Positions 28,317 through 57,845 of a stretch of DNA of 64,000 nucleotides are shown in pieces (the first letter of the stretch is position 1; every line of letters starts with the position of its first letter). The translations under genes were made by a program, and so were the position numbers. This DNA is from Chitinophaga pinensis (GTDB taxonomy: Bacteria > Bacteroidota > Bacteroidia > UBA7662 > JAIXUI01): contig CALSBM010000007.1 in assembly GCA_943373175.1 (NCBI GenBank), positions 2,502 through 66,501 on the forward strand, written 5' to 3'. Below the pieces are notes generated by a model. It was not told where the DNA came from. It did no database searches and saw nothing but the letters and a program-made list of their open reading frames with translations.

Positions 28317-29140
28317 TTTTAACCTATGACCTGATAATCCTGCTTGTAGCAGGGCTATCTGCCGGATTTCTTGCAGGATTATTAGGCGTAGGAGGAGGAA
28401 TTATCTTTGTGCCGGTGCTTTCTTGGTATCTCGGAAAAACTGGCGTTGATAGCCACGTTGAAGTAATTATGGTAATAGCTAACTCGCTTGCTTTAGCGTG
28501 TATTATGGGCATCAGTGGAACACTCAGCCAAAAGAAAAAAGGCTATTTCTTCCCTGCTCCTACTTTAGCACTTGGATTAGGAGGTGCTGTAACCTCAGTT
28601 GCAACAGCTTATCTTATTTCTCATACCCAAGTTTACGATAAACGGCTATTCGGAATTGTTTTCTCTATTCTGTTGATACCCTTGATTGTAAAAATGTTTC
28701 GGGCTAAAGAGAGTGAAGATTCAAACGAAACTTCTACTAATAGTTCCAGCAATTTTCCTCGTTGGAGGCTGCTATTAATCGGATTACTTACCGGCGTTGT
28801 TTCCGCCTTGAGTGGGTTAGGTGGAGGCGTAATCATGATTCCGTTGCTAAATTCTTGGGCTAAATTCAGCATGCGTAAATCGGGTGCTATATCCTTATCG
28901 AGCATTGTCATACTTTCATTTTTCATGAGTTTGTATTACATGACAACCAGTGCCACGGAAGTGCCCAAGATGCCTCTCACATTGGGCTACATTCACCTTC
29001 CAGTATTACTTCCTTTAGCGTTAGGAATCACCGTATCGGCACCCTTTGGTGTTAAGATGGCACATAAAGTTAATGGGCACACCATCAAGTGGATTTTTGT
29101 AGCGCTTTTCACTGTGATACTCATCCAAATGAATTGGTGA
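28313..29140 (+). CDS. sulfite exporter TauE/SafE family membrane protein
   Basis: Duplicated four-TM halves, each with a GxGGGxxxxP-like motif (GVGGGIIFVPVL, GLGGGVIMIPLL). Confidence 0.75.
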   Translation: MILTYDLIILLVAGLSAGFLAGLLGVGGGIIFVPVLSWYLGKTGVDSHVEVIMVIANSLALACIMGISGTLSQKKKGYFFPAPTLALGLGGAVTSVATAYLISHTQVYDKRLFGIVFSILLIPLIVKMFRAKESEDSNETSTNSSSNFPRWRLLLIGLLTGVVSALSGLGGGVIMIPLLNSWAKFSMRKSGAISLSSIVILSFFMSLYYMTTSATEVPKMPLTLGYIHLPVLLPLALGITVSAPFGVKMAHKVNGHTIKWIFVALFTVILIQMNW

Positions 29141-29548
29141 TATACTGCTAACTATTCACTTCTGATAATATCCCTCCGAGCAGCCTCAGCCTCAATACTA
29201 AAAAGTCCCCAAACGACTATCTCGATGGGGACTTTTGCATTGCGTAGTGTTGGATGGTACTTGGTATTGAGTGTGAAGCTAGAGAATCTTCGTCGATGCT
29301 GACACAGGTTAATTTCTAGTTTCCTTTGATGAAATGGGTCGATTCCGTAATGCCTTACATTTCGATTTTACCCTCCTTACCCAAAATAGTTAACTCATAT
29401 TGCTGATTTTAGCCATCTTTATCACATTTTTAAAGCATCTGCTATGATTACAAATTTTGCAACTAACTAACTATTTTCTTTGTCTTTTATGCTGTAATAA
29501 TCTTTGGTCGGAGCTGTGTATTAGTTTCTATCTATTGCCATTAATTAC

Positions 29549-29911
29549 TTATTTAAAATTATCTATTATTCTAGATTTGTCTTCATTTTCTTTATCGTTC
29601 TTATGATACAATTCAATGAATGTAATTTTTTGTTCGTCAGGAAAGTACGCATAAATTAATCTTAGACCTGAATTTACTCCTCTTCCTTTTAATGCCTTAC
29701 AAGCAATTTTTTTAACCTTAATGACACACGTTTCTAAACCCAAATTATCAATACGGAAACTAAAAGGAGGACTTTCACCAGGTTCGTCATTCAGGTCTAA
29801 CTTCACCACTTCCAAATCATCGTTGAGCGTTCTGTATTTTTTTAAAAGGTTCTTCAAATCCTTTTTAAATGTTGAAAGTTCATAAAATTCAATATTGTTC
29901 ATCATCTTCAT
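29549..29911 (-). CDS. RelE/ParE-superfamily type II toxin-like protein
   Basis: 120-aa protein. The core IKVKKIACKALKGRGVNSGLRLIYAYFPDEQKITFIELYHKNDK follows the RelE/ParE pattern: basic beta-strand, G(K/R)(R)G..R, hydrophobic Y.K, then a basic C-terminal region. It overlaps the upstream antitoxin-like gene by 23 bp. Confidence 0.55.
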   Translation of the reverse strand: MKMMNNIEFYELSTFKKDLKNLLKKYRTLNDDLEVVKLDLNDEPGESPPFSFRIDNLGLETCVIKVKKIACKALKGRGVNSGLRLIYAYFPDEQKITFIELYHKNDKENEDKSRIIDNFK

Positions 29912-30689
29912 AAACTCTAATTGAATAAGGTGGTCTTCTGTAAAAAGCCAATTCGTAATTTATTTCTTCACCTTCTTTTGATGCCTTCCAAGGTTTATCA
30001 CCGTGCGAATAGTTGCTGAGCATAGCCGCACTCCAATCACTCATTTGTTCCATAACCCTGTCAATAATATCTTTCTCGCTTGCCTTTAACTCAGTTAAAT
30101 CAGCTTTCTCTAAAGGCAAATAACGAGTTTGAGGATAACCATGATATTCGGTTTTTACTCTTTGCAACTGCCCTATTTCAATCATTTGACCAATAATCAT
30201 ATCAAAATTTTGCGGAACTGGCCCATAAGGTAATTTGCGATATGTAGCACCTGTTAAATGCTCCTCATACAATTCGTAATAATTAAAATCCGAAAAATAC
30301 AGTAACTTATATAGAACCGTTTCACCGACATTAGGCTTACCTGCACAGCGTTCAAGGATATACAATAAGACATTTTTGAACTTGCCGATTTGTAGAGTAG
30401 GCACAGAAATACGTTCTTCCACTTTCTTGGCCTTATTTTCTTCTTTGCCTTCAACCTCTTGATTTGCCGAGAAATTCTTAGACATAAAATCATCCAATGA
30501 AAATTTCAAAATCATAGCCAGTTTTTGCAGTTCAAGAATATCGACGCTTCTATTTCCTAACTCTATTTGAGCCAAAGACGGTCGGGAAATTTTGACACTT
30601 TTAGCCAAATCTTCTTGCGACAACCCCTTCATTTTACGAAGTTCGGTTAGCCTCTGACCTATTTGCTTTTGCGACAATTGCATGTTCAT
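29889..30689 (-). CDS. HTH-XRE DNA-binding protein fused to a DUF4065 (Panacea/SocA-like) antitoxin-type domain
   Basis: N-terminus QKQIGQRLTELRKMKGLSQEDLAKSVKISRPSLAQIELGNRSVDILELQKLA is a Cro/C1-type HTH. The C-terminal half, LYKLLYFSDFNYYELYEEHLTGATYRKLPYGPVPQNFD, matches the conserved core of DUF4065. Confidence 0.65.
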   Translation of the reverse strand: MNMQLSQKQIGQRLTELRKMKGLSQEDLAKSVKISRPSLAQIELGNRSVDILELQKLAMILKFSLDDFMSKNFSANQEVEGKEENKAKKVEERISVPTLQIGKFKNVLLYILERCAGKPNVGETVLYKLLYFSDFNYYELYEEHLTGATYRKLPYGPVPQNFDMIIGQMIEIGQLQRVKTEYHGYPQTRYLPLEKADLTELKASEKDIIDRVMEQMSDWSAAMLSNYSHGDKPWKASKEGEEINYELAFYRRPPYSIRVYEDDEQY

Positions 30690-31197
30690 ATCAATTTAAG
30701 TTTCGCTGTTCAACGGAACAAAGATAAGCAATGTTTCAAATTCAAACATACTTCTGTTTCCATACAAAACACTGCCTACACTTGCCAAATGCAATTGAAC
30801 TCAAAGAAAAACTGTTTAAAACCCTTTCTACCGGAAGAAACAAACAAAACATCCAACATACAGCCCGGCAAAAATGGACTCAACAAATGACACAAGCAGC
30901 CTCCGTAGTAAATGATTGCAACCGACGACAGGCAAGAACACCAACCGCCAACATACCACCGAAAATCTAAAAAGCCTCAAAAGACCCTTAGACTTCTTGG
31001 AGAGGATATAAAAAAGTTGATTATTTTGGAGACAGAAACAGGTAAAGAAGAAACACTACCCCAAAATGTGGTTTTCAACCTTAGTACTCACCTCCCATGA
31101 AAGCAAACTACACGCAGTGCGTGAAATCGACTACAGGAGCATGTATCGCGCAAGACTGCGTATATTAATCGTTATGTGCAATTTATAATCCAGACAA

Positions 31198-32109
31198 ATG
31201 AGCGGAGTTGTACAACCAGACTTCAGACAAGGAAATAGGTCTGAATATTTAGCGCAATATCTTCTTTCTTACTTGGGGACAACCGTTTTTGTTCCAAGAC
31301 AAGAAGACGTTGGCATCGACTTTAATTGTGCAATTTCTGTCGCTAGCGGACACGTTGAAGAAATCAAAGAACAATTTCATGTTCAAATAAAATCTAATAT
31401 CACGGACGATATAGAATTTGGTGAGGTTGCAAAGACAGGTAAAAATCAAAAGACCAAATGGAAACAATATGAACTTGAATGGCTCTTTAATCTAGACAAT
31501 CCTCTTTTCATTGGCATTGTAAATAAAGACGAAGGTAGCCTTGAGCTTTATTCAACCTCTTTCATGTGGTATAATTACTGGAACAGAAAATTCTTAACGG
31601 TCAAATTTCTTCCAAATCATCCTAGCGGTGACATGGCAGAAATACACGTTCAAGAAGACATCGATATTTCTGAATGGGCTAGTGACTTAGAAACTACGGA
31701 GCCCAAAGTGAAAACAGTTGTACCAATGGGACCACCTATTATTAAACTGACAAAAGAAAATATAAGACAATCGGAAGTACTGCCAACTCTTAAAAACCTA
31801 TTCAGACTTGCAATACAAATAGAACAAGCTAATATCACTTATAAAAAACTTAGACTGCCCTATTTTAACTGGCTTCATAAGATCTCGACAAATAGCAGTT
31901 TCGTTGGTGGTTTTTTTTACGCAATCGATAAAGTGCTAATTGAAGAACAACGACTATATCAATCTTTAACTCCATTACTAATTTCGCTTGCACTTCTTTA
32001 TAAGCAGACCAACGACCAAAGATTCGAGATTATTATGAACGCACTCAACTTAACTCCTCCGCAGTTCATTCCTCCTGAAGTTAAAGTAGCTCTTGGACTT
32101 CCTGCTTGA
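31198..32109 (+). CDS. hypothetical protein with N-terminal PD-(D/E)xK (DUF4365-like restriction-endonuclease fold) motif
   Basis: 303-aa protein. The N-terminus NRSEYLAQYLLSYLGTTVFVPRQEDVGIDFNCAI...EEIKEQFHVQIKS contains E...D-x-GID...Q-x-K, the typical DUF4365 / PD-(D/E)xK arrangement. The C-terminal roughly 180 aa are unassigned. The gene lies at low GC and is transcribed divergently from the TA pair. Confidence 0.5.
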   Translation: MSGVVQPDFRQGNRSEYLAQYLLSYLGTTVFVPRQEDVGIDFNCAISVASGHVEEIKEQFHVQIKSNITDDIEFGEVAKTGKNQKTKWKQYELEWLFNLDNPLFIGIVNKDEGSLELYSTSFMWYNYWNRKFLTVKFLPNHPSGDMAEIHVQEDIDISEWASDLETTEPKVKTVVPMGPPIIKLTKENIRQSEVLPTLKNLFRLAIQIEQANITYKKLRLPYFNWLHKISTNSSFVGGFFYAIDKVLIEEQRLYQSLTPLLISLALLYKQTNDQRFEIIMNALNLTPPQFIPPEVKVALGLPA

Positions 32110-32264
32110 CGTTAAACTGCACATAACAGCACCTACTTGCATTTTTTTGCGGGTTAGCGCTCAAATGCGTAAATTGACATAGCAAAAAACTGCAAGTAGC
32201 TCCAAAACGTTATGTCCATTCCTAAAACGACAACTACTGCAACTTCAACAATAATGTAAAGACA

Positions 32265-32354
32265 ATGGAAAGAAGAAAATTTATCATCACTACTGGAGGG
32301 TTTGTTTCAGCAACAATGTCTCGTCCTAAAAAAAGTTTACGAGTTAATTTCTAA
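32265..32354 (+). pseudogene. decayed N-terminal fragment of a Tat-secreted Gfo/Idh/MocA-type oxidoreductase
   Basis: A 30-codon ORF encodes MERRKFIITTGGFVSATMSRPKKSLRVNF. This matches the twin-arginine signal (RRxFI) followed by the K(K)xLRVGIIG Rossmann start seen in periplasmic Gfo/Idh/MocA proteins. It stops right there, and the downstream frames are scrambled. Confidence 0.45.
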
Positions 32355-32638
32355 ATAGTGTTGGCAGCCACATGGTACAAAGGATAAAGCTCTGGAAATT
32401 CTTTGTCGGTTCTAAAGTAGCGGTTCGGGGATGTGCTAAAGGGGTCTATAAGCTCCGGATTATCCAGCGATTTTCCCACCTCAGTGAATGCGTGTGCTTC
32501 TTAATTCAATGTCCATCTTGACTATTAGCCCAAGAAGAAGTATTTACCTATTTGTTTAGCCAGGTAAAAATGCAGCCTCCACAACCACCACGTTACTCCC
32601 TCGTCCGAGAGGGCTTCGGTTCAACAAATTCTACCCAA

Positions 32639-33271
32639 CTACCTATACAATTCCGGGAAATACTCTCGAAGAATAGACAATGGATTTTGATTGGTATGAT
32701 GGACAGGAGCAGTTATCCTTAACCGCTTTGCAGCTTCGCGGTGTTGTATCGAATCTTCAATAAAAAGACAATCTTCTGGATTGAGGTTTTGTTCGTTTAA
32801 CAAAAGCTGAAAAAATGCTTCCTCCGGCTTTCTGGTTCCACATTCATAACTCAGATAAACTTTAGTGAACATTTCCTGAAAGTTGAATATTCCCCTTTTT
32901 TCTAAACCCTGATAAATAGTCTGAATGTGCAATACATTGGTGTTAGAAAAAAGAAAGCAAGGAATATCATTCGCTCTTAATGGAGCAAGAAGTGCCAGCC
33001 TTTCATCTGGTAAATCAAGCAGAATGCTATCCCATGCCTCCCTTATTTGAGCATCTGTAAGGGCAAGACCGGATAGCCTTCTTATTTCTTGATAAAACTG
33101 GTTTTCAGAAATTTTGCCTGTTTCTAATAAATCAAAAACTACCTGTTGTTCCGCCTGGCTGTAACTGTTGCCAAAATCACGGTAGCCTAACGCTTCAAAT
33201 GCCTTACGGGGTGCCTGATAATCAATATTGATTAAAACTCCTCCGAAATCAAAAATTACTGCTTTCATCAA
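32639..33271 (-). CDS. HAD family hydrolase (subfamily IA)
   Basis: Motif I VIFDFGGVL is followed by downstream HAD motifs. Overlaps the SDR gene by 4 bp. Confidence 0.8.
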   Translation of the reverse strand: MMKAVIFDFGGVLINIDYQAPRKAFEALGYRDFGNSYSQAEQQVVFDLLETGKISENQFYQEIRRLSGLALTDAQIREAWDSILLDLPDERLALLAPLRANDIPCFLFSNTNVLHIQTIYQGLEKRGIFNFQEMFTKVYLSYECGTRKPEEAFFQLLLNEQNLNPEDCLFIEDSIQHREAAKRLRITAPVHHTNQNPLSILREYFPELYR

Positions 33272-56729: not shown

Positions 56730-57845
56730 TTAACGTCGGCTTTCGACGTAATTCAAAAGCATTTTCAAACGGCTTCTTAAATCCTCAATTCCTTCCTTTT
56801 GGATAACAGAAATAAACACTGAATCTCGGTCTTTTGCCATCCAACTTTTTCGGAGGTGCTCAACTGTCATTTCGGGGTTATGTTTAAGAAACACATCCAT
56901 CTTATTGAAAACAAGCAGGTTCGGCTTATCAAGCACTTTCAACTCTCGTAAAGTTTCCTCAACCACCACCACTTGCTCTTCAAAATTAGGATGGCTGATA
57001 TCCACAACATGTAGCAAAATGTCAGCTTCTCTTACTTCATCCAGCGTTGATTTAAAAGACTCTATTAAATGAGTAGGAATCTTTCTAATAAACCCCACCG
57101 TATCAGAAATCAGGAAAGCAGTTTGGTCAAGTACTACCTTTCTGACAGTAGAGTCAACCGTAGCAAAGAGTTTGTTTTCTGCAAAAACATCGGCTTTAGA
57201 AAGTAGATTCATCAAGCTGGATTTGCCTACGTTGGTATATCCTACAAGTGCAACCCTGGTTAATGTCCCTCTTCCCTTTCGTTGGGTTTGATTTTGACGA
57301 TCGATGGTTTGGAGTTTTTCCTTTAAAACGGCTATTCGAGTTCGAATTACCCGTCGATCAGTTTCGATTTCCTTTTCTCCAGGCCCTTTCATTCCAATAC
57401 CTCCCTTTTGTTTCTGAAGGTGAGTCCACATACGGGTTAACCGGGGAAGCAGGTATTGATTTTGGGCTAATTCCACCTGTGTTCTTGCCTGCGCTGTTTG
57501 AGCGCGGGAAGCAAAGATGTCGAGGATAAGATTGGAACGATCCAGGATTTTACAGCTTAGCGATTGTTCCAGATTTCTGATTTGAGTAGGCGTTAACTCA
57601 TCATCAAAAACGACTAAATCCGCTTCGGCATGTTTAACAAAGTCGGCGACTTCTGCCAGTTTTCCTTTGCCTATGTATGAACGAGAATCAGGCCTTTCCA
57701 GCTTTTGTAAAAACCGGCCAATAGTTTCAGCACCTGCCGTTTCTGCTAGAAAGGCCAATTCATCCAAATATTCTTCTGCTTGCTCCTTAGTTTGTAACTG
57801 ACTAATTACACCTACTAAAACGGCCTTTTCTTTCTCTTTAATCAA
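56730..57845 (-). CDS. hflX: GTPase HflX
   Basis: G1 VALVGYTNVGKSSL, G3 DTVGF and G4 NKMD motifs, plus an HflX N-terminal domain. Confidence 0.9.
   Translation of the reverse strand: MIKEKEKAVLVGVISQLQTKEQAEEYLDELAFLAETAGAETIGRFLQKLERPDSRSYIGKGKLAEVADFVKHAEADLVVFDDELTPTQIRNLEQSLSCKILDRSNLILDIFASRAQTAQARTQVELAQNQYLLPRLTRMWTHLQKQKGGIGMKGPGEKEIETDRRVIRTRIAVLKEKLQTIDRQNQTQRKGRGTLTRVALVGYTNVGKSSLMNLLSKADVFAENKLFATVDSTVRKVVLDQTAFLISDTVGFIRKIPTHLIESFKSTLDEVREADILLHVVDISHPNFEEQVVVVEETLRELKVLDKPNLLVFNKMDVFLKHNPEMTVEHLRKSWMAKDRDSVFISVIQKEGIEDLRSRLKMLLNYVESRR

Follow-up and report, generated by a model that had tools for sequence, protein, structure and literature searches.

A chromosomal gene pair of probable PanAT type joins an HTH-Panacea antitoxin to a HigB2-like toxin in Bacteroidota

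We analysed a 64-kb stretch of DNA from Chitinophaga pinensis (assembly GCA_943373175.1, contig CALSBM010000007.1, positions 2,502 to 66,501; 'the window' denotes this whole stretch of 64,000 nucleotides (nt)). On its minus strand, two adjacent open reading frames (ORFs) encode proteins of 266 amino acids (aa; 29889..30689) and 120 aa (29549..29911). Very probably, this cassette is a chromosomal type II toxin-antitoxin (TA) system of the PanAT kind, in which an antitoxin built from an XRE-type helix-turn-helix (HTH) domain, a linker and a Panacea domain is paired with a HigB2-like toxin of the RelE superfamily, and which works by the mechanism proposed below. The domain identities, the toxin fold, the conservation of catalytic residues, the strict pairing of both genes, purifying selection and the conservation of promoter and operators support this assignment. 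Panacea is known as an antitoxin domain that is paired with dozens of toxin types; HTH extensions were reported for 343 Panacea antitoxins (PanAs), and the toxin domains paired with Panacea include MqsR and ParE (Kurata et al. 2022, PNAS 119:e2102212119).

The 266-aa protein is encoded by a panA-type antitoxin gene (29889..30689, minus strand, stop codon at 29889-29891), an assignment based on its ORF, Pfam matches, pairing and selection. It comprises an HTH_3 domain (PF01381; residues 16-68, E 1.8e-12, 47.6 bits versus a cut-off of 23) and a SocA_Panacea/DUF4065 domain (PF13274; residues 126-235, E 6.4e-22, 79.1 bits versus 25.7), the latter spanning the whole model (1-113 of 113). Both score above the Pfam thresholds, which bears out an original prediction, made from the DNA letters only, of a Cro/C1 HTH fused to a DUF4065-like domain. 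Among solved structures, the HTH domain is closest to two controller proteins of restriction-modification systems, C.AhdI and C.BclI (E 7e-6). NCBI labels antitoxin homologues as 'antitoxin SocA domain-containing protein'; the SocA equivalog itself (NCBIfam NF047745, type VI antitoxin) scored 14.6 bits against a cut-off of 190 (E 0.019). None of the accessory domains PAD1, ZBD (zinc-binding domain) and Phd-C was detected in the antitoxin by a Pfam scan. The stored gene call begins at M3 and gives 264 aa.

Three parts can be distinguished in the antitoxin, all encoded on the minus strand. The Cro/C1 (XRE) HTH domain (residues 1-70, 30480..30689) contains the HTH_3 match and was modelled by AlphaFold2 (AF2) with a predicted local distance difference test (pLDDT) of 82-91 over residues 11-70. 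It is followed by a variable charged linker (residues 71-100, 30390..30479) that is probably disordered (pLDDT <50 at 78-101), and by the Panacea domain with a conserved C-terminal tail (residues 101-266, 29892..30389), the likely toxin-binding part according to PF13274 and an alignment with HTH-less homologues. Among 74 distinct homologues from other genomes, mean column identity was 0.85-0.94 in the HTH, the segment 101-125 and Panacea. The tail (INYELaFYR..P.SvR.Y) is moderately conserved at 0.75, and the linker is the least conserved region of the protein (0.63).

The 120-aa protein is encoded by a panT-type toxin gene (29549..29911, minus strand; 117 aa with the start at 29902), for which ORF, structure model, Foldseek, profile and selection evidence agree on a RelE/HigB2-like product. 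A RelE/ParE-like relation had been suggested by the original prediction, and Pfam and NCBIfam alone miss it. Only 2 of 85 toxin homologues reached PF06296 ('RelE', the HigB-2 family) at E < 0.01, one weakly matched PF05016 (ParE_toxin), and the single toxin sequence matched HigB-2 of the PDB below threshold (E 0.058). A profile of the 85 diverse homologues matched Vibrio cholerae HigB-2 with E 4.8e-5. Judged by these searches, the toxin is a remote homologue of HigB-2 whose relation is visible only with a family profile, that is, HigB2-like and not a PF06296 member.

An AF2 model of the toxin, calculated from the 85-homologue alignment, was confident (pLDDT 92.7, predicted template modelling score (pTM) 0.86) and displayed the beta-alpha-alpha-beta4-alpha topology of RelE, with strands at residues 8-11, 51-53, 62-66, 83-90 and 95-103 and helices at 13-23, 29-42 and 112-119. 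In this model two N-terminal helices lie on a four-stranded antiparallel sheet, the arrangement that defines the RelE/ParE superfamily (BECR) fold. The best Foldseek match in the PDB was HigB2 (8a0x_D, E 4.5e-4, template modelling (TM) scores 0.57/0.62), and all of the top 49 matches are RelE-superfamily TA toxins (HigB2, RelE, YoeB, YafQ, HigB). Since HigB2 comes first and 48 RelE-superfamily toxins follow, the model identifies a RelE-superfamily protein closest to HigB2 and not a new fold. Whether this protein is a true RelE member or a novel fold had been left by the original prediction to profile matching and structure prediction; both place it with the RelE type, next to HigB2.

The residues expected at the active site point in the same direction. 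In HigB2, replacement of R51, R64, Y82 or K84 by alanine raised the toxin dose that inhibits translation 170- to 3000-fold (Hadzi et al. 2017, PMC5416850). The profile alignment pairs GSRIIY of HigB2 with SGLRLIY of the toxin, and TIYGKN with ELYHKN. By this alignment, HigB2 R64, Y82 and K84 map to toxin R84, Y102 and K104, conserved in 80, 79 and 76 of the 85 homologues, respectively. Strand beta2 carries further lysines near A70: K65 is kept in 76/85, position 67 is K or R in 71/85, and K68 is also close by. K65 and K67 recall the K52/K54 pair of Escherichia coli RelE. E100 is conserved in 71/85. The toxin would thus have a RelE/HigB2-like basic active site of R84, Y102 and K104 together with K65/K67 on beta2, possibly with E100. 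This residue pattern favours a ribosome-dependent mRNase over a gyrase poison of ParE type, and the toxin is probably an mRNase of the ribosome-dependent RelE/HigB2 type.

At 90% identity the toxin family falls into 4371 clusters, and at 50% it is covered by 552 representatives; NCBI labels its members as 'hypothetical protein' and IMG as RelE. One relative is found in a different setting: P0225, a protein of 3334 aa with filamentous-haemagglutinin repeats (Fil_haemagg_2), has a toxin-like domain at its C-terminal end (residues 3215-3325) that is 40% identical to the toxin of the window (E 1.3e-14). From its sequence, P0225 looks like a CdiA-type polymorphic toxin that reuses the RelE-like domain. 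Because the RelE-like domain ends a filamentous-haemagglutinin-type protein, as in polymorphic toxins, it lends independent support to toxicity.

To survey gene pairing, we scanned one genome per species with a query alignment of 14 sequences, the 85-sequence alignment being too diverse. The toxin is encoded in at least 582 species genomes, and the best 80 loci belong nearly all to Bacteroidota. Together with 4 loci from an earlier search, these 80 gave a set of 84, and in 83 of the 84 an HTH-Panacea gene lies immediately upstream of the toxin gene. The exception is a Bacteroidetes contig of a metagenome-assembled genome (L041, contig positions 1-842), where an ORF fragment of an IstB-like protein (IS21 helper) stands in the antitoxin's place in front of the toxin gene (498-842). 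This locus is either an orphan toxin left after insertion of an insertion sequence or an assembly artefact. The median ratio of nonsynonymous to synonymous rates (dN/dS) was about 0.09 for the antitoxin and about 0.10 for the toxin, the synonymous rate (dS) of the closest loci being 0.5-1.0; by this measure both genes are under strong purifying selection.

The genes around the pair change from locus to locus: the 71 upstream flanks fall into 65 clusters and the 73 downstream flanks into 67. No toxin homologues were found among PLSDB plasmids or INPHARED phages, and of 2.9 million viral contigs in IMG/VR a single one carried the toxin. On these grounds we rejected plasmids or phages as the origin of this subfamily. 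The cassette, which also coincides with a local dip in GC content, is a mobile two-gene chromosomal unit. The PADLOC defence models gave no match to the toxin and only generic HTH matches to the antitoxin.

We then asked which part of the antitoxin would neutralise the toxin. Toxin homologues with 34-49% identity are likewise preceded by Panacea genes. One type of these partners has an HTH (264 aa) and two types are HTH-less (191 and 180 aa). The 180-aa partner, whose toxin is 34% identical to that of the window, aligns to antitoxin residues 103-263 with 39% identity, including the tail (YE.xFYR.P.S.R.Y.DD). Since relatives of the toxin have HTH-less partners, HTH and linker are dispensable for pairing, and it is in Panacea and tail that the determinant of toxin binding is to be expected. 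In experimentally studied systems, standalone Panacea neutralises toxins directly, and PAD1, ZBD or Phd-C take over when present (Ernits et al. 2023, PMC10440598). Because the antitoxin of the window carries none of these three domains and HTH-less relatives still pair, Panacea and tail (residues ~103-266) are likely the neutralising part.

The region upstream of the antitoxin gene contains two operator-like palindromes of the form TGTTT-N7-AAACA. The proximal one, O2 (TGTTTCAAATTCAAACA, 30732..30748), lies at -59 from the ATG beside a -7 box and over the -33 region. The distal one, O1 (TGTTTCCATACAAAACA, 30755..30771), lies at -82, 23 bp from O2 centre to centre. Both match the form exactly. 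The -7 box (TATCTTTG, 30719..30726, minus strand) is at position -37 and agrees with TAnnTTTG, the -7 consensus of Bacteroidetes sigma-A promoters. In the 64-kb window TGTTT-N7-AAACA has 3 exact matches versus 0.17 expected, two of which are those upstream of the antitoxin. The third (57173-57189) lies inside ORF 56730..57845 and is probably due to chance.

These elements are conserved at fixed positions across loci. At least one exact palindrome was present in 71 of 74 upstream regions (0.0016 expected per sequence). For O2, most of the 74 loci keep the site at -59 or a few bases away (28 at exactly -59); O1 is kept at -82 in 23 loci, and in 49 a near-invariant TAnnTTTG stands between -36 and -38 relative to the ATG. 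The half-sites and the -7 box carry the highest information content, which drops to background upstream of -92. The palindrome is absent upstream of HTH-less Panacea antitoxins (two distinct upstream regions, three loci). The two palindromes are thus probably the operators of the HTH domain. A repressor bound to O2, which adjoins the -7 box and spans the -33 region, would obstruct RNA polymerase. The arrangement resembles the classic layout of autorepression, similar to the paired operators of C proteins.

The original prediction had placed inverted repeats at 30705-30749. One conserved palindrome (30732-30748) indeed lies inside this range, but the second (30755-30771) lies outside it. A GTTC-N4-GAAC palindrome at 30707-30720 is real but mostly specific to the window; across loci only GTTaAACA is conserved there, around -24 to -17 from the antitoxin ATG. 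In the window this element of the putative 5' untranslated region (GTTGAACA, 30707..30714, minus strand) is like the right half-site of the operators (TTGAAACA). It is located downstream of the -7 box, roughly at the expected transcription start, and may serve the repressor as an additional contact or act as a signal in translation. The antitoxin leader in the window would measure roughly 25 nt, unlike a variant seen in four Pedobacter loci (L063, L064, L067 and L090). There, a single palindrome lies just upstream of the -7 box (TATATTTG or TATGTTTG), which ends about 4 nt before the annotated antitoxin ATG; at this distance the Pedobacter antitoxin mRNA should be leaderless or nearly so.

The 3' end of the antitoxin gene and the 5' end of the toxin gene share positions 29889..29911 (minus strand). 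With the first ATG of the toxin the overlap measures 23 bp, as the original prediction had it for these same two ORFs, and the three peptide strings that it quoted are all present in the translations. Two more ATGs in the same frame, at 29905 and 29902, would give overlaps of 17 or 14 bp, so the range is 14-23 bp. Homologues of 117-118 aa begin at the equivalent of M4 (the third ATG), and residues 1-3 are unstructured in the AF2 model. Among homologous loci the two genes either overlap or are separated by 2-30 nt, and are thus always tightly packed.

We propose the following mechanism. A Bacteroidetes-type promoter would transcribe a single minus-strand operon, antitoxin first and toxin second. 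A dimer of the HTH domain would bind both palindromes over the -33 region and repress the operon, while Panacea and tail (residues ~103-266) would bind the toxin and neutralise it directly. Free toxin would enter the ribosomal A site and cut translated mRNA. In this scheme the toxic effect, the cutting of mRNA, the contact between antitoxin and toxin and the binding of DNA are inferred from the comparisons described above.

A pair of this kind has been catalogued before. In the rows of Dataset S1 of Kurata et al. 2022 that list it, cluster T14 (pT15) comprises at least 16 pairs, and the HHpred result given for a member is HigB-2 at 99.7%. HTH-PanAs placed in front of the toxin are listed there for Pedobacter, Flexibacter, Brumimicrobium, Paludibacter and Hydrotalea. 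The P. ginsenosidimutans KACC 14530 entry corresponds to our locus L090 (GCA_001442625.1), in which a 114-aa gene begins 2 nt after the antitoxin gene, matching the listed row. Its toxin is 69% identical to that of the window (E 2e-56), and its antitoxin likewise (69%, E 2e-144). Because the window pair is 69%/69% identical to this catalogued pair in the same gene order, we assign it to T14. They share an HTH-Panacea gene upstream and a toxin of about 115 aa downstream, in the order antitoxin-toxin; the sequences differ, that of the window coming from a Flavobacteriales-like genome, and nothing differs in kind. The T14 rows also include HTH-less archaeal PanAs, matching the standalone Panacea partners described above.

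Characterised systems resemble the cassette in parts. V. cholerae HigB2-HigA2 (PDB 5JA8, 5JA9, 5JAA and 8A0X; Hadzi et al. 2017) has a toxin of the same fold. Alignment of the motifs GxGxxSGxR-I-I-Y and I-Y-x-K gives three of the four HigB2 catalytic residues a counterpart in the toxin of the window, and HigA2 also uses an XRE-type HTH for operator binding. However, higB2 comes first in its operon whereas the antitoxin gene comes first in the window. Furthermore, the toxin is only 16-20% identical to HigB2 over the Foldseek alignments, falls below the PF06296 cut-off and does not keep R51. In HigA2 a disordered N-terminal segment neutralises and the HTH is C-terminal, in contrast to the N-terminal HTH and globular Panacea of the window antitoxin; the mode of neutralisation probably differs from HigBA2.

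In MqsR:PanA of Bartonella fungorum (ZBD-HTH-Panacea; Ernits et al. 2023, PMC10440598), an antitoxin with HTH and Panacea is likewise combined with a RelE-related mRNase, MqsR being counted in the RelE family (Hadzi et al. 2017, PMC5416850). The HTH of this PanA mediates homodimerisation and is taken as a DNA-binding autoregulatory domain (PMC10440598). Its zinc-binding domain neutralises and HTH-Panacea alone does not, whereas the antitoxin of the window is devoid of ZBD, PAD1 and Phd-C. Caulobacter SocA-SocB, with the founding DUF4065 member, has the DUF4065/Panacea domain in common with the cassette, but the window antitoxin scores far below the SocA equivalog and the toxin is RelE-like. 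SocB is a replication-clamp inhibitor that is degraded via ClpXP. C.AhdI and C.BclI, the closest solved HTH relatives, bind paired palindromic operators overlapping a promoter, as the two palindromes 23 bp apart suggest for the cassette. In contrast to the antitoxin, they are small stand-alone regulators of restriction genes without a toxin-binding domain.

The cassette lies in a low-GC stretch of about 3.5 kb (29141-32638; 31-37% GC versus 40-48% in the flanks), which is flanked by a TauE-family gene and a HAD hydrolase gene. Besides the TA pair, it contains one ORF of 303 aa, and three long gaps in it are non-coding (29141-29548, 30690-31197 and 32110-32638). Its wider neighbours in the window serve cbb3-oxidase assembly and other housekeeping functions, not defence. 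A search of 28500-33000 against Rfam gave no match, there is no tRNA near the cassette, and neither tRNA nor integrase was found in the low-GC stretch. A scan 3' of the toxin gene revealed no convincing intrinsic terminator. ORFs on the strand opposite the cassette are short (49-79 aa) and have no support.

The 303-aa ORF (31198-32109, plus strand) is divergent from the TA operon. Its family is very rare, with 12 proteins at E <= 0.001 among 5.8 billion, and its N-terminus shows a faint match to DUF4365 (PD-(D/E)xK-like; E 0.0075). Homologues in Ferruginibacter and on two metagenome contigs are not located beside a PanAT pair; one lies near a PIN_3 pair. As these rare homologues are unlinked to PanAT, we rejected the ORF as a third TA component.

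Several observations weigh against the assignment of the cassette as a PanAT system with a HigB2-like mRNase. The toxin does not reach the cut-offs of PF06296 (E 0.038, 14.6 bits versus 27) or TIGR02385 (E 0.064, 13.8 bits versus 27.9); because the gathering threshold was tested and the score fell below it, we did not file the toxin under PF06296. Its TM-scores in Foldseek were only 0.5-0.65. HigB2 R51 aligns to A70, and arginine occupies this position in only 19 of 85 homologues. The AF2 model of the antitoxin, made from 36 close homologues, was poor (pLDDT 58.5) and usable only for the HTH and the disordered linker, so the interface has been placed by comparison of homologues. Ernits et al. 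2023 (PMC10440598) suggested that Panacea in multidomain PanAs is a possible sensor and not the neutraliser. Finally, the T14 rows of Dataset S1 considered here are all marked 'notest', which makes the cluster a predicted one.

One alternative is that the toxin poisons DNA gyrase like ParE and is not an mRNase, one fold serving both activities. RelE and ParE toxins have the same fold and are not cleanly separated by Pfam (PMC11980606), one homologue weakly matches PF05016, and ParE is among the known toxin domains paired with Panacea (Kurata et al. 2022). However, the best matches in sequence and structure are the mRNases HigB2, RelE, YoeB and YafQ, and the sole ParE-labelled entry in the Foldseek top 50 is a YoeB/ParE chain (6n90) at rank 43. 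Moreover, the equivalents of HigB2 R64, Y82 and K84 are nearly invariant, and the loop between beta2 and beta3 (KALKGRGVNSG) resembles the HigB2 loop that contacts the ribosome in being basic and rich in glycine. We therefore regard a gyrase poison as very unlikely. There is even less reason to suppose that the 120-aa ORF is a remnant, decayed or without toxicity, and that the 266-aa protein is only a transcription factor. Pfam and NCBIfam miss the small protein, NCBI calls it hypothetical, and in L041 a toxin gene stands without an antitoxin gene. Yet the toxin gene, whose synonymous sites are nearly saturated, has a dN/dS of about 0.10; the catalytic residues are conserved, homologues form 4371 clusters, and pairing is nearly universal, so that we give the remnant explanation hardly any credence.

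Other alternatives concern the antitoxin and the biological role. Panacea/DUF4065 was named after SocA, NCBI applies the SocA label to homologues, and the NCBIfam SocA_antitoxin model matches weakly (E 0.019). One might thus suppose a SocAB-like type VI system, in which the Panacea protein is an adaptor that hands the toxin to a protease such as ClpXP and does not inhibit it by binding. The equivalog score of 14.6 against 190 bits and a toxin of RelE fold, not SocB, conflict with this, as do the stable PanA-PanT complexes and direct neutralisation seen in tested pairs (Kurata et al. 2022; Ernits et al. 2023), and we consider it highly improbable. More room is left for the idea that the cassette acts mainly in abortive infection against phages, with Panacea sensing a phage cue and releasing or activating the toxin, and not in simple addiction or stress control. 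Ernits et al. 2023 (PMC10440598) hypothesised a sensor function of Panacea and saw a link between phage defence and TA networks. In the window, the cassette has a rare accessory gene for neighbour within a stretch of low GC, and its genomic context varies between species as in defence islands. On the other hand, PADLOC recognised no more than a generic HTH in the antitoxin and nothing in the toxin, the plasmid and phage collections lack the toxin, which occurred on that one viral contig, and the flanks of the cassette in the window are housekeeping and not defence genes. On balance we think a mainly anti-phage role unlikely; since it concerns the biological role, it would be compatible with the molecular mechanism proposed here.

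The pairing and the toxin fold were already predicted in the published catalogue, and the copy in the window adds one more sequence, of little weight alone. Our analysis makes small additions, namely the size of the family and its range in Bacteroidota, its absence from curated hidden Markov model libraries, the conserved double operator with its promoter, and the argument for Panacea and tail. Neither the promoter and operator layout nor the family size (at least 582 species) is described in the available portions of the text and Dataset S1 of Kurata et al. 2022. The family also marks an annotation gap: a large toxin family is missed by Pfam and NCBIfam, and a dedicated model would mend many annotations.

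A tentative idea, which we put forward as possible but rather doubtful, is that globular Panacea and tail, and not a disordered peptide, neutralise a RelE-fold mRNase through a three-dimensional epitope, and that they might also sense a cue such as a phage protein and then release the toxin. If true, this would apparently be the first RelE-type toxin in the literature under conformational neutralisation by Panacea, and the family would offer an abundant Bacteroidota model for the proposed sensor role of the domain. The occurrence of both HTH-bearing and HTH-less Panacea partners makes the family a clean test case for the way in which Panacea controls a RelE-fold toxin, be it by neutralisation or by sensing of a cue. 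Likewise, the conserved pair of operators on a -33/-7 promoter of Bacteroidetes type offers a ready and testable autoregulatory element in a phylum that has few characterised promoters and repressors.

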